Origin: an uncultured Acetatifactor sp.
GTDB taxonomy: Bacteria > Bacillota > Clostridia > Lachnospirales > Lachnospiraceae
Direction of reading: 5' to 3'
DNA: 64,000 nucleotides
Assembly (NCBI GenBank): GCA_910585015.1
Contig: CAJUCT010000008.1
Location: forward strand, 29,106 to 93,105
The notes under the pieces are model-generated. The model was given only the letters and a program-made list of their open reading frames with translations, searched no databases and was not told the DNA's origin. Below, in pieces: positions 6,167 to 11,453 of this stretch; within the stretch, counting starts at the first letter, position 1; each line of letters opens with the position of its first letter. Made by a program: the position numbers and the translations under genes.

Positions 6167-6955
6167 ATGGGAACTTACTTGCTCATATCGGATGCCGCCA
6201 AGGAGGTCAAGGTGGAGAGTCATGTGCTGCGCTATTGGGAGGAGGAACTGCGGCTGCCCATCAAGCGCAATGAGCTGGGGCACCGTTACTATACGCAGGA
6301 GGATGTGGAACGCTTCAAGCAGATCAAAGCTATGAAAGAAAGGGGATTACAGTTGAAAGCGATCAAGATGATCCTAAAAGATGGAAAATTGGATGTTCTG
6401 CCTCAGGAGGAATTTCGTGAGAGGACAGCAGGGAGAGAAATGCCCCGGGAGGATATATCCCAGGGAAATATGCAGGACGCAGGTAGAGATCCTTCCATGG
6501 CTATTGAGGTGGTTTCTGTCAGGGACAGCGATATGGTCCCGGAGAGAGAGGAATATTCCGCTCCCGTGCAGCAGGAGTTGGCGGAGCCTATCCGGCAGAA
6601 ATCGTCCGGTTTGTCAGCGGAAAGCCGGGAGGACAAAGCGCGCCGCCTGCAATGGCTTTTGCAGCAGTTGATCCGAGAAACTTTGCGGGAAAACAATGAG
6701 GAACTCTGCCAGAGTATGAAGGAAAGCCTTATCAAGGAGTTGGATTATCAATTTCGCAGTCAGGAGGAGCGGGAGGAGGAGAGGGACCGTCTGGCCCAGC
6801 AGCGCAGCGAGGAATACTACCGGAAGATGGATGAACTGTTGTGCAAAAAAAGTCGCAGGAAGGCGGACAAAGCGGACAAAAAGGAGCGGGCAGCGGAGAA
6901 GGTCAAGCCCCCCAAGCCTACCGGAGATAAGAAAAAAAGGCATTTCGTTTTCTGA
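6167..6955 (+). CDS. MerR family transcriptional regulator with a long charged C-terminal tail
   Basis: N-terminal HTH ISDAAKEVKVESHVLRYWEEE...LGHRYYTQEDVERFKQIKAMKERGLQLKAIK. The C-terminal approximately 180 aa are E/R/K-rich. Confidence 0.8.
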   Translation: MGTYLLISDAAKEVKVESHVLRYWEEELRLPIKRNELGHRYYTQEDVERFKQIKAMKERGLQLKAIKMILKDGKLDVLPQEEFRERTAGREMPREDISQGNMQDAGRDPSMAIEVVSVRDSDMVPEREEYSAPVQQELAEPIRQKSSGLSAESREDKARRLQWLLQQLIRETLRENNEELCQSMKESLIKELDYQFRSQEEREEERDRLAQQRSEEYYRKMDELLCKKSRRKADKADKKERAAEKVKPPKPTGDKKKRHFVF

Positions 6956-6965
6956 AATGCCTTTT
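6934..6965. terminator. Bidirectional terminator between the merR-like gene and ferredoxin
   Basis: AAAAGGCATTTC / GAAATGCCTTTT stem flanked by A-run and T-run. Confidence 0.7.
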
Positions 6966-6982
6966 CACTCTCACAAATACGC

Positions 6983-7153
6983 TTACTCTTCGCTGATGGT
7001 ACCCACAGGGCAGTTACCGGCACAGGAACCACAGGAAATGCAGGTATCGGGATCGATCACTGCAACACCGGTATCCATGCTGATTGCGCCTACAGGACAC
7101 GCACCGGCACAAGCACCGCAGCCTACACAAGCGTCGCCTACTACAAATGCCAT
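6983..7153 (-). CDS. 2x[4Fe-4S] ferredoxin
   Basis: 56 aa with two CxxCxxCxxxCP motifs (CVGCGACAGACP and CISCGSCAGNCP). Start placed at MAFVV. Confidence 0.9.
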   Translation of the reverse strand: MAFVVGDACVGCGACAGACPVGAISMDTGVAVIDPDTCISCGSCAGNCPVGTISEE

Positions 7154-7231: not shown

Positions 7232-7987
7232 CTAATTTTGCTCTGCGCGGCGTTTTTTGACACCTTCCAAAATCACCTTTTTCTTTTCAACCACCTTGTC
7301 CTTGTCCATGGCAGGGACACCGGCCAGTTTGTAGTCAATTCCCAGTTTTTTGTATTTGGCCTCGCCCATGGTGTGGTAGGGCAGCACATCCAGCGCCTTT
7401 AAATTGTCAAATTGGCCGATGAAATAGCCCAGGTCATACAGGTATTTATCGTCGTCTGTGATGCCTGGCACCACCACATGCCGTATCCACATATCAACTT
7501 TTTTCTCGTTCAGGTAGGCGGCAAATTCCAGAATGTGCTGGTTGGGCTGGGAGGTCAGTTCCTTGTGCTTGGCGGGATCGATGTGCTTGATGTCCAGCAT
7601 TACTAGGTCCGTCAGCGTCATCAGCTTATCCAGTTTCTGAATCCATGCAGTGTTGTCTGGATTAAAGGCAATACCTGAACTGTCAATACAGGTGTGTATA
7701 TTTTTCTCTTTTGCCAATGTGAACAGGTCGATCAGAAAGTCCACCTGCATCAGGGGTTCCCCGCCGGTGACGGTCAGGCCGCCGCCGTTTTTGTAGAAAG
7801 CACTGTTTCTTTCGTACTGCTCGATGATATAGGCCGGCTCCATCATTGTGCCGCCGCTCATCTCCCAGGTGTCAGGGTTGTGGCAGTAGGCACAACGCAT
7901 GGGACATCCCTGTACGAACACAACAAAACGTGTGCCGGGGCCGTCCACAGTGCCAAAACTCTCAAGTGAATGAATTCTCCCTTGCAT
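7232..7987 (-). CDS. pflA: Pyruvate formate-lyase activating enzyme (radical SAM)
   Basis: CPMRCAYCHNPDTW radical-SAM cluster motif and GGGLTVTGGEPL. The start at MQGRIHSLESFG is chosen by RBS spacing. The ORF-track start at 8017 is possible but less likely. Confidence 0.88.
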   Translation of the reverse strand: MQGRIHSLESFGTVDGPGTRFVVFVQGCPMRCAYCHNPDTWEMSGGTMMEPAYIIEQYERNSAFYKNGGGLTVTGGEPLMQVDFLIDLFTLAKEKNIHTCIDSSGIAFNPDNTAWIQKLDKLMTLTDLVMLDIKHIDPAKHKELTSQPNQHILEFAAYLNEKKVDMWIRHVVVPGITDDDKYLYDLGYFIGQFDNLKALDVLPYHTMGEAKYKKLGIDYKLAGVPAMDKDKVVEKKKVILEGVKKRRAEQN

Positions 7988-8023
7988 AAATAATAGCATC
8001 TCCTTTCGTGAAGGCAATTCCTG

Positions 8024-8102
8024 GCTTACCTCTTTCCTGCATAACGTGGATTATGCTCGTGTTATTACCTTAATCGGTATTTGGATGTGCAACATCCAAA
8101 AC
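8024..8102 (+). repeat. Family 2 palindromic element, single unit
   Basis: CTTACCTCT...CCTGCATAACG...TTAATCGGTATTTGGATGTGCAACATCCAAA matches the units at 61738-61898 and 25214-25380. Confidence 0.75.
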
Positions 8103-8214
8103 CAATATTGAATAAAGTCATTATAGCAGAATTTCTAATAAATGGAAAGATGGTTTTGAAAGAATGCCGCATGGATATAGTATGTCCGAAAAATGGAAAA
8201 GGAGTACAAAAAAA

Positions 8215-8252
8215 GGGAGTCCCGGTTCACGGGACCCCTCTTTCGGTTAATC
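8215..8252 (-). terminator. Intrinsic terminator after the stand-alone glycyl-radical ORF
   Basis: On the minus strand: GAGGGGTCCCG-TGAA-CCGGGACTCCC followed by TTTTTTT. Confidence 0.75.
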
Positions 8253-8264
8253 GGCCACTGCCGA

Positions 8265-8507
8265 TTAGATAGCCTCATGGAAGGTACGGGAGATAACGTC
8301 AGCCTGCTGTTCCGGAGTCAGCTTGATGAAGTTCACTGCATAGCCGGACACGCGGATGGTCAGCTGAGGATAATTCTCGGGATGAGCCTGAGCATCCAAT
8401 AAGGTATCTCTGTTCAACACGTTTACATTCAGATGATGACCGCCCTTCGTAGCATAGCCATCCAATAAGTTTACCAGGTTATCAACCTGTGCTGCACTTG
8501 CTGCCAT
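8265..8507 (-). CDS. Stand-alone glycyl-radical domain, the detached C-terminal piece of PflB (GrcA/YfiD-like)
   Basis: 80 aa containing [55 protein letters not shown], the PFL C-terminal glycyl-radical signature RVSGYAV. It has its own AGGAGG RBS. Confidence 0.9.
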
Positions 8508-8634
8508 AATTTTTTCCTCCTATTCTGAGTTCCGTCTCTGCACTACGGCGTCCCCTGAGAGGGAGGCCGTAGTGCAGAGACTGTTATTGATATATTTTAT
8601 GCCGCCCGCCCGTAGGGGGCGGCATGTACTGCAC

Positions 8635-8835
8635 CTATTCGTAATCATCCAGTCCCTGATGCAAAGTAGGTACACTGCAGGCCAGCGGGGTGCGGGAACA
8701 ATCCGAACAACCCATGGTCTGAACGGTTTTGTTTTCCTCGGTATCGTCACGGTCCACATTGATGTGTCCCATGCCGTCTGCCATGCCCTGATCGAGCATT
8801 TTTACGAGGTCATCAATCATTTTATTCTCGTCCAT
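8635..8835 (-). CDS. 66 aa acidic Cys-containing protein encoded inside the pflB interruption
   Basis: GAAAGAGG RBS 5 nt upstream of the ATG. Residues 7-28 resemble the start of the glycyl-radical piece (DDLVKMLD..G.GHINV versus [15 protein letters not shown]). It also carries a CSDC...C motif. Coding status is unproven. Confidence 0.5.
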   Translation of the reverse strand: MDENKMIDDLVKMLDQGMADGMGHINVDRDDTEENKTVQTMGCSDCSRTPLACSVPTLHQGLDDYE

Positions 8836-8877
8836 ATTTACCTCTTTCTACATCATAGTCTCGATGTGGTCTACAGA

Positions 8878-10917
8878 TTACTTGCTCAGATCCAACTCAA
8901 TGTCTCCGCTGAACACCTGATCTTCCTTGCCCAGAGCGCCGGGGATGATGGTGAAGGTATTGGAGATACCGTCCTGCGCATCATTGAAGGGCAGCTTGGA
9001 TACGGAAGACAGAGATGCCACTGCGCCGTGGGTGTCACGTCCATGCATCGGGTTAGCGCCGGGAGCGAAAGGCTGGCCCTTTCTACGTCCGTCAGGCGTG
9101 TTACCGGTTGCCTTGCCGTAGGTTACATTGGAAGTAATGGTCAGGATGGAAGTGGTAGGGAATCCATCTCTGTAGGTGTGATGCCTTCTGATAGCGGTCA
9201 TAAACTTATGAACCACATCCTGGGCAATGCTGTCAACACGGTCGTCATCGTTACCATACTTCGGGAACTCGCCGGTGGTCTTGAAGTCAACGATGATACC
9301 ATCTTCATCGCGGACAACTTCAACCTTGGCATACTTGATAGCGGACAGAGAGTCTGCCACGATGGACAGGCCGGCAACACCGGTTGCGAAGTATCTTCTC
9401 ACATCTCTGTCATGCAGAGCCATCTCAGCTCTCTCGTAACAGTACTTGTCATGCATATAGTGGATAATATTCAGGGTATTTACATACACATCAGCCTGCC
9501 ACTCCAGCATGTCGATGAACTTGCTGTACACATCGTCAAAGTCCAGAACATCGCCGACCACAGGACGGTACTTAGGACCAACCTGCTTCTTGGTAACTTC
9601 GTCCACGCCGCCGTTCAAAGCGTACAGCAGGCACTTAGCCACGTTGGCGCGAGCGCCGAAGAACTGCATCTCCTTACCGATTCTCATGGAAGATACGCAG
9701 CAGGCAATACCATAGTCATCGCCATGGGTCACTCTCATCAGGTCATCGTTCTCATACTGGATGGAAGATGTGTTGATGGAGGTCTTAGCACAGAAGCGCT
9801 TGAAGCCCTCAGGCAGTCTGGTGGACCACAGTACGGTCAGGTTGGGCTCAGGTGAAGCGCCCAGATTGTACAGGGTCTGCAGATATCTGAAGCTCATTCT
9901 GGTAACCATATGACGACCGTCTACGCCCACACCAGCCAGGGACTCGGTTACCCATACAGGATCACCGGCGAAGATCTGGTTGTACTCAGGAGTACGGGCA
10001 AACTTGATCAGACGCAGCTTCATGATGAAGTGGTCGATGAACTCCTGGATCTGCTCCTCGGTGAACACACCGTTCTTCAGATCTCTCTCTGCATAGCAGT
10101 CGATAAAGGTGGAGGTACGTCCCAGGGACATAGCGGCGCCGTTCTGCTCCTTAACGGCACACAGATAGCCGAAGTAGGTCCACTGAATAGCCTCTTTTAC
10201 GTTGGCAGCGGGCTTAGAGATATCGCAGCCGTAGGAAGCAGCCATCTCCTTCATCAGCTTCAGGGCAACGATCTGCTCGGAAATCTCTTCGCGCAGACGG
10301 ATCACATCGTCGGTCATCACACGGCCGGTGGAAGCCTTCTGCTCCTCCTTATCCTGAATCAGTCTGTCGATACCGTACAGGGCAACCCTTCTGTAGTCGC
10401 CGATGATACGGCCACGGCCATAGGCATCAGGCAGACCGGTGATAATATGGGAAGAACGGCAGGCTCTCATCTCTGCATTATAAGCATCAAAACAACCTGC
10501 ATTGTGGGTCTTTCTGTGAGTGGAGAAAAACTCGCTGATCTCGGGATCGACCTCGTAGCCGTTGTCGGCGCAAGCCTTCTCTGCCATACGGATACCGCCA
10601 TAGGGCTGCAGGGATCTCTTGAAAGGCTTGTCGGTCTGGAAACCAACGATGGTCTCCTTGCTCTTGTCAAGGTAACCAGGACCATGGGAGGTGATGGTGG
10701 AAACAACCTTGGTGTCCATGTCCAGAACGCCGCCTGCTTCTCTCTCCTGCTTCTGCAGATCCAGTACCATTGCCCACAAATCCTTTGTGTTTTGTGTAGG
10801 GCCAACTAAGAAAGAATCATCTCCATCATAGGGATGATAGTTCTTCTGGATGAAATCACGAACATTGATTTCATTTTCCCACTTGCCGCCTACAAATTCG
10901 TTCCATTCAGGTCTCAT
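8878..10917 (-). CDS. pflB: Formate C-acetyltransferase (pyruvate formate-lyase) lacking the glycyl-radical domain
   Basis: 679 aa with the catalytic Cys pair ACCVSSM and [23 protein letters not shown]. Homology stops at ALGKEDQV, followed by 11 unrelated residues and TAA. RVSGYAV is absent from this ORF. Confidence 0.92.
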
Positions 10918-10985: not shown

Positions 10986-11014
10986 ATTATAGGAGAAAGA
11001 ATCGGGATAGTCAA
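10986..11014 (-). promoter_or_regulatory. Sigma-A type promoter of pflB
   Basis: On the minus strand: TTGACT, 17 nt, TATAAT, about 65 nt upstream of the pflB ATG. Confidence 0.7.
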
Positions 11015-11261: not shown

Positions 11262-11453
11262 ATGCAAGGAATTACCAAGGAGATGACCATCGGGGAAATT
11301 CTGAGGAAGAACCCGGATGTGGCGCCGATTTTGATGGAAGCAGGTATGCACTGTCTGGGATGCCCGTCCGCTCAGGGCGAGAGCCTGGAGGAGGCCGCAA
11401 TGGTGCATGGCATTGATGTTGAAGCGCTGATGAAGAACATTCAGGAGGCGTAG
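11262..11453 (+). CDS. DUF1858 / hybrid-cluster-protein-associated redox disulfide domain protein
   Basis: 63 aa: [43 protein letters not shown]. Confidence 0.8.

Follow-up and report, generated by a model that had tools for sequence, protein, structure and literature searches.

The pyruvate formate-lyase (PFL) locus described here probably encodes an obligately heteromeric enzyme, in which a catalytic core is accompanied by a replaceable radical subunit, GrcA3, and an accessory subunit, ORF66. In many gut anaerobes, pyruvate is converted to acetyl-CoA and formate chiefly by PFL. Comparison of the sequences strongly supports the notion that the gene is truly split, and the radical domain would thus have to come in trans from a GrcA-like protein. 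An earlier note on this DNA had suggested a two-chain PFL assembled in trans; the detached radical domain is upheld by the comparative evidence, but the locus is a three-gene module and not a two-chain one. The genes are arranged on the minus strand of the window (the whole 64-kb stretch of DNA analysed) in the order PFL core, ORF66, GrcA3, terminator, pflA and a ferredoxin gene, and all features discussed below lie on that strand.

The split PFL gene and its neighbourhood

The catalytic core (8878-10917) is a chain of 679 aa and 76 kDa with a PFL-like barrel (Pfam PF02901, PFL-like domain, E 5e-215) and the Cys-Cys site, and without a glycyl-radical loop. It scores 1087.3 bits against TIGR01255 (equivalog cut-off 994.2), is 61% identical to PflB of E. 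coli, and loses its homology to full-length PFLs at ...GALGKEDQV. As the earlier note had recognized, the Cys-Cys site is retained: the Cys loop ACCVS occupies residues 405-409, and C406 and C407 are invariant in 41 homologues, the adjacent catalytic cysteines of the reference being C418/C419 of E. coli. The same note's assertion that the main chain lacks a radical domain is likewise borne out by the absence of the glycyl radical enzyme (GRE) fingerprint RVxG[FWY]x6-8[FL]x4Qx2[IV]x2R from the 679-aa chain. A promoter-like site, TTGACT-17-TATAAT, is predicted upstream of the core gene (10986-11014; 11 of 12 matches in a consensus scan).

The end of the homology and the TAA were placed correctly in the earlier note, but the 11 codons preceding the TAA (8881-8913), taken there for unrelated sequence, encode a conserved, acidic and amphipathic tail. 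Its consensus across 82 loci is VF(S/A)GD(I/L)E(L/I/V)DL(N/S)K, its pN/pS is 0.13, and acidic alternating tails are found also on distant split cores; we propose that the tail constitutes a pseudo-beta10 strand. The AlphaFold2 model of the core, for which the alignment comprised 41 sequences at ~88% identity, was unusable (pLDDT 46.5). Several longer relatives were considered as intact PFLs and rejected, with P0121 (805 aa) and P0127 (821 aa) containing internal assembly duplications and P0430 (751 aa) having an over-extended N-terminal gene call.

The radical domain is encoded separately by the gene of GrcA3 (8265-8507; 80 aa, 8.8 kDa), which is made up of a helix, the beta10 strand, another helix, the Gly loop (RVSGY, with Gly55) and a helix at the C-terminus. 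The ORF indeed possesses the ATG and the ribosome-binding site of its own ascribed to it before (TAGGAGG, 8 nt upstream of the ATG). The protein matches NF038360, 'autonomous glycyl radical cofactor GrcA3', with 160.6 bits (cut-off 158) over model positions 2-78 of 78, aligns to positions 51-106 of Pfam Gly_radical, and carries the GRE fingerprint at residues 52-74. At the locus, the fingerprint is confined to GrcA3 and the Cys-Cys site to the core, and the two chains tile both TIGR01255 (positions 2-665 of 744 for the core and 665-743 for GrcA3) and E. coli PflB (residues 10-681 and 683-758, respectively) with nothing missing. The equivalence to GrcA/YfiD proposed for the 80-aa piece does not extend to its architecture. 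GrcA3 aligns to residues 67-126 of YfiD (E 4e-24), but its score against the GrcA equivalog TIGR04365 is 99.3 bits, below the cut-off of 170, with only the C-terminal 61 residues aligned; it has 7 residues ahead of the docking helix and is devoid of the long disordered N-terminal half, a region of 60 residues. At this type of locus, the partner core of GrcA3 never carries a radical domain (>80 species).

The terminator and the pflA gene reported downstream of the 80-aa ORF are both recovered. An intrinsic-terminator-like hairpin closes the core-ORF66-grcA3 unit (8216-8238; a 9-pair stem with 7 GC pairs, followed by the T-run CTTTTTTTGT), and a promoter-like site, TTTCCA-17-TATAAT with a TG, is predicted upstream of pflA (8120-8148; 10 of 12 matches in a consensus scan). 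The pflA gene itself (7232-7987), starting ~280 nt downstream of the grcA3 stop codon, encodes a PFL-activating radical-SAM enzyme of 251 aa from its ATG, or of 261 aa from an alternative TTG start at 8017; the protein reaches 297 bits on TIGR02493 (cut-off 231.75) and contains the Pfam domains Radical_SAM and Fer4_12. It is followed by a gene for a small 2x[4Fe-4S] ferredoxin (6983-7153; 56 aa as called, Pfam Fer4 families) and a further terminator-like hairpin (6934-6966; a 13-pair stem, then a T-run). The ferredoxin gene follows pflA in most related loci, and its product is the probable electron donor for PflA.

Inspection of 80 species-level genomes, drawn from at least 561 hits in a collection with one genome per species, showed the order core-ORF66-GrcA3-pflA-fdx in every one of them. 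The earlier note had left it to related genomes to tell an uninterrupted pflB from a split one, and throughout these hits the split is kept. Isolates with this gene order include Acetatifactor aquisgranensis DSM 110981, Bacterium D16-50 and IMSAGC_003, and the core of A. muris measures 678 aa. The 679-aa protein recurs with identical sequence in public assemblies (704 indexed blocks), and the gene order is the same on the contigs that were inspected; the locus is thus no assembly artefact. All pieces are under purifying selection, with dN/dS values of 0.057 for ORF66, 0.054 for GrcA3 and 0.059 for the C-terminal 120 codons of the core, in agreement with the initial impression of a locus that has not decayed.

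ORF66, a small protein between core and GrcA3

The gap of 430 bp between the two pieces, treated as empty in the earlier note, holds a conserved ORF (8635-8835) for a protein of 66 aa (7.3 kDa, pI 4.2), the third component of the module. ORF66 is preceded by a ribosome-binding site of its own, GAAAGAGG, as each of the three cistrons is. It has 1,511 homologues at E<=0.01, and its family forms 212 clusters at 50% identity in a library of 1.84 billion proteins. In the loci inspected, ORF66 is always situated between the core and GrcA3, and its distant relatives (~35-45% identical) still lie between a core of ~680 aa and a GrcA3 of 80 aa. Neither ORF66 nor the profile of its family found a match in Pfam, NCBIfam or PDB. 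The idea that ORF66 is a pseudogene remnant was rejected on account of the dN/dS of ~0.06 and the 212 clusters, and a protein of 813 aa (P0307), matched in the ORF66 profile search, was dismissed as a coiled-coil false positive.

Residues 3-32 of ORF66 (8740-8829), a helix followed by a GxGHxNV strand, are homologous to the N-terminus of GrcA3, i.e. to the PFL helix and beta10. An hhalign comparison of the two families placed ORF66 residues 3-32 on GrcA3 residues 4-33 with a probability of 94% (E 1.4e-7), and BLASTP supported the relationship with an E of 2e-4; the resemblance is limited to this helix-strand, with the Cys motif being extra in ORF66. The AlphaFold2 model of ORF66 is of low confidence overall (pLDDT 64.7) and shows a helix at residues 3-19 and a strand at 25-28 in the N-terminal part (pLDDT 71-81). 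A Foldseek search with the model found nothing (best E 3.6), and in a comparison of the ORF66 profile with YfiD only the GGQHLNVNV strand aligned, at a probability of 2%. With a helix-strand resembling that of GrcA3, ORF66 might compete with GrcA3 instead of cooperating with it.

The Cys motif, C-x-D-C-x6-C-S-V-P-T-L-x-x-G-L-D, spans residues 43-64 (8644-8709) within the most constrained part of the protein (residues 38-66, dN/dS 0.027). C46, C53, P56, T57 and L58 are invariant or nearly so across the wide family. In the clade of the window the cysteines are C43, C46 and C53, only the latter two of which are conserved family-wide. Four conserved Cys ligands for a [4Fe-4S] cluster were not found in the ORF66 family, and a classical Fe-S site is disfavoured because just two Cys are conserved throughout it.

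The spacer between ORF66 and grcA3 contains two GC-rich RNA hairpins (8625-8599 and 8581-8534) without a U-tract. Its minimum free energy is -65.7 kcal/mol (z = -8.8 relative to shuffled sequences), and similar spacer hairpins, unrelated in sequence, are found in other species.

The proposed enzyme and competing explanations

The mechanism that we propose is as follows. The 76-kDa core would provide the barrel and the Cys-Cys loop. It lacks the final strand of the barrel as well as the finger loop with the glycyl radical, and both would be supplied in trans by the 8.8-kDa GrcA3. PflA, encoded adjacent together with the ferredoxin, would turn Gly55 of GrcA3 into the glycyl radical, and GrcA3 would then dock into the core by strand complementation, completing the PFL active site. 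Both the assembly in trans and the activation of GrcA3 by PflA are what we infer for this locus. The presumed benefit is that the oxygen-labile part would be a cheap, replaceable subunit, such that a protein of 80 residues would be lost to oxygen and not one of 760. ORF66 would be an accessory subunit, with its N-terminal helix-strand copying the docking element of GrcA3 and its C-terminal Cys motif being the functional part that acts at the hinge between the core and the radical domain. We thus prefer to see ORF66 as a hinge or recognition module, presumably of a ternary complex.

A different role of ORF66, which we consider rather unlikely, is that of a cap or placeholder of the core's socket. 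Its GrcA3-like helix-strand would sit in the empty beta10 slot and its Cys loop in the Gly-loop cavity, keeping the radical-less core folded and protected until ORF66 is displaced by (activated) GrcA3; binding of the two would be mutually exclusive. The homologous residues 3-32 do correspond to the very segment by which GrcA3 would dock, the size of ORF66 approximates that of the N-terminal GrcA3 fragment left after cleavage at Gly55, and in E. coli the binding of YfiD requires that the corresponding leftover, residues 696-733, be moved out of the way, with truncated or cleaved PFL being prone to proteolysis (PMC8683613). However, the acidic tail of the core could already be the cap, and related loci are hard to accommodate. 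The Cys motif is present in every split locus inspected (~100), whether carried by ORF66 or by the tail of the core. L097 has DCGTGACSTPTLFEGLD, an ORF66-type Cys motif, fused to its core tail, and L091 and 13 further metagenome loci exhibit a Cys-rich core tail and a separate GrcA piece, the motif in all these cases being tethered to the core without the helix-strand. At the syntenic locus L092 the PFL is even unsplit and has CxDCx6C inserted at the corresponding hinge, i.e. the motif and an intact radical domain in one chain. Given L092 and the core-tethered variants, the Cys motif seems to work alongside the radical domain and not instead of it.

Very improbable is a role of the 80-aa protein as an ordinary spare part, as in E. 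coli, for an intact PFL elsewhere in the genome, with the 679-aa ORF being a remnant, either decaying or non-catalytic, although only repair parts are known among the GrcA-type proteins (PMC8683613). The purifying selection on the core is as strong as that on GrcA3, and the chain has kept the Cys-Cys site along with a score above the PFL equivalog cut-off. Across >80 species the chain terminates at one and the same position and bears the conserved tail there, and it is always co-located with GrcA3 and pflA. Moreover, the closest intact PFLs that span the junction are at most 81% identical over it, whereas the split ones are 88-100% identical among themselves. No intact pflB is present within the 64-kb window.

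Even less credible is the view that ORF66 has nothing to do with PFL, being a RiPP precursor modified by the radical-SAM enzyme or a hitch-hiking metal-binding or redox protein. A small acidic Cys-containing peptide encoded beside a radical-SAM gene, and one with no family assignment in Pfam, NCBIfam or PDB, might invite such an interpretation, but PflA is a bona fide PFL activase without SPASM or RiPP-recognition domains, the N-terminus of ORF66 is homologous to that of the PFL radical domain, and the Cys motif, besides its occurrence at all of the ~100 split loci, is found joined to the PFL core or within a PFL that is not split.

Restoration of a single-chain PFL by a self-splicing intron, by programmed frameshifting or readthrough, or by protein trans-splicing has next to no chance of being correct: the core and ORF66 do share a frame in the window, separated by TAA and TAG, and the spacer hairpins are very stable, but the spacers between cistrons vary from 14 to 271 and from 2 to 397 nt in 82 loci and are unrelated in sequence between species, the relative reading frames are distributed evenly, as if at random (27/28/27), and purifying selection acts on the protein encoded in between. 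Searches for group I/II introns and other Rfam families were negative even at E<=10, and the flanks, of 11 aa (tail) and 7 aa (leader), could by no means accommodate the halves of a split intein, with no intein domain found by Pfam. Rfam gave no hit in the whole window at the gathering score, and the permissive scan (E<=10) of 8100-9200 yielded only chance-level miRNA-like hits on the spacer hairpin. Readthrough from the core into ORF66 was rejected, the frame common to both in the window not being common to them in relatives. The variable spacers, the random frames, the lack of an Rfam intron and of room for an intein thus indicate three separate cistrons and not a spliced or recoded gene.

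The heteromeric enzyme envisaged here bears on mechanistic questions that are still open, namely the oxygen sensitivity of PFL and the way in which GrcA/YfiD recognizes the damaged enzyme (PMC8683613). A radical domain that is naturally and permanently detached, is strongly conserved as such and is accompanied by a small partner makes a model for the docking and undocking of glycyl-radical domains, for the activation of a free radical domain by PflA, and for the ways in which a cell keeps oxygen damage from becoming costly. The split system is shared by hundreds of species of the Lachnospiraceae, cultivable isolates of Acetatifactor among them, and thus also matters for the formation of formate and acetate in the gut. 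As for genome annotation, a 'formate C-acetyltransferase' of ~680 aa and a 'GrcA' should be read as one enzyme, and the 66-aa 'hypothetical protein' between them merits a family of its own. Our broader idea, to which we grant some but less than even credence, is that split PFLs represent a distinct, widespread class of GREs with an exchangeable radical subunit, where a hitherto unrecognized Cys-motif module governs the docking of that subunit, its activation or its exchange, perhaps in dependence on redox state or metal. If this were true, the module, be it free, attached to the tail of the core or placed within the hinge of an unsplit PFL, would represent the first accessory subunit known for a formate lyase, and it would correspond in nature to the 'recognition element' that has been postulated for the repair by YfiD in E. 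coli.

Comparison with known systems

The GrcA3 family name in NCBIfam was already in existence, and NF038360, of which the present GrcA3 is a member, records a stand-alone radical domain only. Our literature search found no paper on a split PFL, on GrcA3 or on the PDB codes 38LA/38LB, and no description of a truncated partner, an obligate split or ORF66 for NF038360.

A radical enzyme that normally forms a single chain is known in separate polypeptides from Pseudomonas aeruginosa, in the form of its split class II ribonucleotide reductase, as reported (PMC4520616). The reductase is similar in having its gene in pieces and polypeptides that must associate, and differs in its family and in the site of the split. 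We know of no third accessory gene originating from the junction in that reductase.

Small Cys-containing chains of ~60-90 aa bind to the large subunit of other GREs near the radical domain and modulate its movement, as documented for BSS beta/gamma, the MASS subunits and HPAD gamma (PMC13450708). ORF66 can be likened to them as a small Cys-containing accessory chain, but these subunits bear four-Cys [4Fe-4S] sites, in contrast to the two family-wide Cys of ORF66, and belong to X-succinate synthases and decarboxylases. No similarity of ORF66 to the known GRE small subunits was detected in Pfam, NCBIfam or PDB, or with the family profile. To our knowledge, no small subunit has been known for formate lyases.

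The E. coli pair PflB/PflA (PDB 1H16/2PFL; TIGR01255, TIGR02493) belongs to the same enzyme class, with the Cys-Cys loop, the RVSGY motif and, at the present locus, an adjacent PflA equivalog in common. PflB is, however, one chain of 759 aa, whereas the present enzyme is interrupted between the positions corresponding to residues 681 and 683, its core ends in an additional acidic tail, and the gene of a third small protein separates the two parts. GrcA/YfiD of E. coli and Y06I of phage T4, autonomous glycyl radical cofactors known as 'spare part' proteins (TIGR04365, IPR011140; PDB 6OWR), resemble GrcA3, YfiD likewise being a small stand-alone protein with the PFL beta strand, the Gly loop and the C-terminal helix. 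The activator of YfiD is PFL-AE, and YfiD complements PFL bodies without a working radical loop; it has 127 aa, requires its disordered 60-residue N-terminal half for binding, and acts only after oxygen has cleaved an intact PFL (PMC8683613). GrcA3, in contrast, has 80 aa, with a preceding helix in place of the disordered half, and residing beside a body that never carries a radical domain it would be an obligate subunit, not a repair part like YfiD. The enzyme that we propose would resemble a permanent version of the complex formed in E. coli by oxygen-cleaved PFL and YfiD.

An engineered counterpart of such an arrangement exists in E. coli: tPFL(1-695) combined with YfiD is as active as the wild type once activated (Andorfer et al. 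2021, PMC8683613). Like the natural split, it divides PFL into two chains and leaves the body without beta10 and the Gly loop. The binding and activation of tPFL-YfiD need the 'recognition element', residues 696-733, which contains beta10, and truncated E. coli PFL binds YfiD too weakly for measurement (PMC8683613), from which it follows that a two-chain PFL is not automatically efficient. The tPFL-YfiD pair is artificial and poor in binding and activation, while the natural split falls 14 residues earlier and leaves the docking helix on the radical piece. The core tail and ORF66, as beta10-like elements, may be the natural answer to the recognition problem.

Gene content of the locus and the divided enzyme

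The locus consists of five co-oriented genes on the minus strand between 6.9 and 11.0 kb of the window: a pyruvate formate-lyase (PFL)-like core ORF of 679 aa (10917-8878), an ORF of 66 aa (ORF66; 8835-8635), an ORF of 80 aa (GrcA3; 8507-8265), the PFL activase gene pflA (7987-7232) and a gene for a 56-aa 2x[4Fe-4S] ferredoxin (7153-6983). Each cistron has a Shine-Dalgarno sequence of its own, promoter-like sites precede the core gene and pflA, and terminator-like hairpins follow the 80-aa ORF and the ferredoxin gene. ORF66, which sits between the two PFL pieces, had been missed by the earlier note, where the stretch that encodes it figured only as an interval of 430 bp. The neighbouring genes, for a MerR-family regulator of 262 aa with a long charged C-terminal region (6167-6955, plus strand), a DUF1858 protein of 63 aa (11262-11453, plus strand) and a MecA-like adaptor (PF05389; 11509-12246, minus strand), are conserved in relatives. 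A DnaB gene is located beyond the MerR gene, and this MerR-DnaB synteny is also kept in L092, a locus with an unsplit PFL.

The core passes the curated PFL equivalog TIGR01255 (1087 bits, cut-off 994) and, as the earlier note had it, contains the Cys-Cys site (ACCVS, residues 405-409). The detachment of the radical domain is likewise borne out, the fingerprint of glycyl radical enzymes (GREs) being absent from the core and exactly fitted by the 80-aa ORF. The core spans TIGR01255 model positions 2-665 of 744 and aligns with E. coli PflB residues 10-681, and the 80-aa ORF spans positions 665-743, equivalent to PflB residues 683-758; the two coverages abut, and together the ORFs thus make up an entire PFL without a gap. 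The 80-aa protein belongs to the NCBIfam family NF038360, "autonomous glycyl radical cofactor GrcA3" (160.6 bits, cut-off 158), and falls below the cut-off of the classical GrcA/YfiD equivalog (99 versus 170 bits). Unlike YfiD, the GrcA of E. coli, it has no 60-residue disordered N-terminal half; its N-terminus is instead the helix that in PFL comes before the barrel strand beta10. What had been taken for 11 unrelated codons past the homology break of the core proves to be conserved as VF(S/A)GD(I/L)E(L/I/V)DL(N/S)K (pN/pS 0.13), and distant split cores, too, end in tails of alternating hydrophobic and acidic residues.

A return of the pieces to one chain by an intron, recoding or an intein is excluded. 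No Rfam family reached threshold anywhere in the window, and a permissive scan of 8100-9200 gave only chance matches to a spacer hairpin. Across 82 loci the spacers vary from 14 to 271 nt (core-ORF66) and from 2 to 397 nt (ORF66-80-aa ORF) and are unrelated in sequence, with relative reading frames 0, 1 and 2 occurring in 27, 28 and 27 loci, respectively. No intein domain was detected at the break, and its flanking peptides, 11 and seven residues long, could not accommodate the halves of a split intein. The core, ORF66 and GrcA3 are three independently translated cistrons.

The spacer at 8534-8625 (minus strand) holds very stable GC-rich hairpins without U-tracts (-65.7 kcal/mol, z = -8.8). 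Such hairpins, species-specific in sequence, are found in either spacer of L009, L010, L014, L018, L031, L050, L058 and other loci, and may set the core:ORF66:GrcA3 ratio through processing or stabilization of the mRNA.

Conservation of the split and of ORF66

An identical 679-aa protein occurs in 704 blocks of public assemblies, with the same neighbours in the contigs read, so the split is neither an error nor private to one genome. The comparison of pflB across relatives that the earlier note had called for shows the split to be kept, in the order core-ORF66-80-aa ORF, in all 80 retrieved loci where the contig covers these genes; pflA and the ferredoxin gene then follow in most of them. A scan of a one-genome-per-species collection with an ORF66 profile yielded at least 561 confirmed matches, nearly all from Lachnospiraceae (Acetatifactor, Eisenbergiella and unnamed genera), including the isolates A. 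aquisgranensis DSM 110981, Bacterium D16-50 and IMSAGC_003. The core of A. muris (678 aa) falls into the same 90% cluster as that of the window. Lachnospiraceae-type split PFLs were also encountered in metagenome-assembled genomes (MAGs) labelled Gastranaerophilales and Muribaculum (L060 and L073), a placement that probably reflects binning contamination rather than horizontal transfer.

At E<=0.01, 1,511 homologues of ORF66 were retrieved, nearly all of them 66-67 aa long and either called "hypothetical protein" or without annotation. Among 1.84 billion cluster representatives its profile matched 212 clusters (50% identity), and virtually all of these are stand-alone small proteins. No Pfam, NCBIfam or PDB family was found for it. 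Its dN/dS of 0.057 (72 species; 0.027 for residues 38-66) matches that of the 80-aa ORF (0.054) and of the C-terminal 120 codons of the core (0.059). Its residues 3-32 share homology with residues 4-33 of GrcA3 (profile-profile comparison: 94% probability, E 1.4e-7; BLASTP E 2e-4); the shared segment consists of a helix and then a strand with the sequence GxGHxNV. The same two elements, a helix (3-19) and a strand (25-28), are modelled by AlphaFold2 with pLDDT of 71-81, the remainder being of low confidence. The rest of ORF66 is unlike GrcA3 and comprises a variable linker and a Cys motif, which in the clade of the window is near-invariant (C-x-D-C-S-R-T-P-L-A-C-S-V-P-T-L-H-Q-G-L-D-D) and across the wide family reads DC-x(3-10)-(A/S/P)C-x-x-P-T-L-x-x-G-(L/I)-D. 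In that wide family D15, G23, C53 and P56 are invariant, and G21, H24, N26, C46, T57 and L58 nearly so; even distant relatives (approx. 35-45% identical) are encoded between a core of approximately 680 aa and an 80-aa GrcA3.

Alternative architectures at the hinge

Several loci bear on where ORF66 acts. In the Lachnospiraceae MAG locus L092, which shares the neighbours of the window (pflA, ferredoxin, MerR, DnaB), the PFL is unsplit, and precisely where the split PFLs break it has an insert: ...ALGKNSDLFSDNIDAEI-CGDCGCGDSIC-VDGSDSF-QVDNLVSLLDGY..., made up of an acidic tail and then CxDCx6C, with the same spacing as C43, C46 and C53 of ORF66. In L097 the core ends in ...GDIEVDL-DCGTGACSTPTLFEGLDSDQ*, with the C-terminal motif of ORF66 fused straight onto the acidic tail; GrcA3 is encoded separately, next after the core. 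L091 and 13 other metagenome loci have a Cys-rich core tail (...GDLDVSLDCGCCE... or ...LEPDCACCEPNL...) followed by a separate GrcA-type ORF, and ORF66 is absent from these loci. In all of the approximately 100 split loci inspected, either the core tail or ORF66 bears a Cys motif preceded by an acidic, strand-like segment; the remaining metagenome matches are ordinary single-chain PFLs without an insert. This Rosetta-stone pattern of fusions suggests that ORF66 acts physically at the core C-terminus, beside the docking site of the radical domain.

Among the two-piece split PFLs (L094-L098, L101 and L107), several GrcA-type pieces have a low-complexity C-terminal extension of approximately 60 residues, beginning after ...SRTFHSSLGS (e.g. 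...TSVGTMSMPSDF...), which the GrcA3 of the window lacks. The unsplit PFL of L093 (440-739) has a different hinge insert (...GKSDEIFAESISKDCVAHNEDTVYVPGTPSKF-QVDNLV...), which is approximately 26 residues long and contains a single Cys but no CxDC motif; the junction of core and radical domain thus seems particularly prone to insertions. Three seemingly longer PFLs from the protein collection are artefacts: P0121 (805 aa) and P0127 (821 aa) each have more than 100 residues duplicated internally in tandem, in a way that looks like an assembly error, and P0430 (751 aa) has an over-extended N-terminal gene call. P0127 nevertheless pointed to the Cys-rich core tail of L091.

Possible function and relation to known systems

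The core alone lacks beta10 and the Gly finger loop, so GrcA3 would have to supply in trans the helix, beta10, the Gly loop and the closing helix. PflA would then generate the radical on Gly55 of GrcA3, probably with the adjacent ferredoxin as the reductant, and the core with docked GrcA3 would constitute a complete PFL. The 56-aa ferredoxin, encoded next after pflA in most related loci, may be a dedicated reductant of PflA; E. coli uses flavodoxin for its PFL activase.

As for ORF66, we favour the hypothesis of an accessory subunit with a hinge or recognition role that would work jointly with GrcA3, because in L092 its motif is present in one chain with an intact radical domain, and in L097 and L091 the motif is attached to the core. 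Alternatively, ORF66 might cap the empty socket of the core and be displaced from it. The locus could also be read as a decaying pflB beside an ordinary spare part serving another PFL. This reading is contradicted by the purifying selection on the genes, their strict co-location, and the conservation of both the truncation point and the tail; within the 64-kb window there is no second pflB. An identity of ORF66 as a RiPP precursor is at odds with its homology to the N-terminus of the PFL radical domain and with its fusions to PFL. The two conserved cysteines of ORF66 are candidates for a redox switch, a metal site or a contact with the catalytic cysteines. The acidic tail of the core (G-D-I-E-L-D-L, compared with G-H-H-L-N-V-N-V) could hypothetically act as a strand mimic.

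Prior recognition of this system is limited to the NCBIfam name GrcA3 and the PDB entries 38LA (38la_A, 687 aa) and 38LB (38lb_A, 739 aa), both named "Formate acetyltransferase" and both without a glycyl-radical domain, which match core residues 5-666 (1092 bits) and 1-675 (1127 bits), respectively. The former ends exactly at ...SLGKED, and the latter runs on with NVMFGECDM and 43 more residues. A PDB copy with entries up to 2026-04-08 lacks both, which were hence released later. In view of the family name and the two entries, someone may be working on split PFL. Our full-text literature search found nothing on split PFL or GrcA3, and no paper citing either entry. A 2026 GRE review lists spare-part proteins as repair factors only and does not mention split PFL (PMC13450708), and YfiD and its phage T4 counterpart Y06I are the only validated spare parts according to Andorfer et al. 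(PMC8683613).

Judging from the sequences, we would classify the module as a PFL/GrcA system that has become an obligate enzyme of several subunits, among them a member of a new accessory protein family. By analogy, we read it as a constitutive version of the complex of cleaved PFL and spare part, in which oxygen damage would cost an 8.8-kDa subunit, not an 85-kDa enzyme. E. coli PFL cut at residue 695 shows wild-type activity with YfiD once activated, and binding and activation are poor without residues 696-733, the beta10-containing "recognition element" (Andorfer et al. 2021, PMC8683613). Compared with that truncated PFL and YfiD, the natural system has its docking helix attached to the radical piece and adds two beta10-like elements, the acidic tail of the core and the strand of ORF66.
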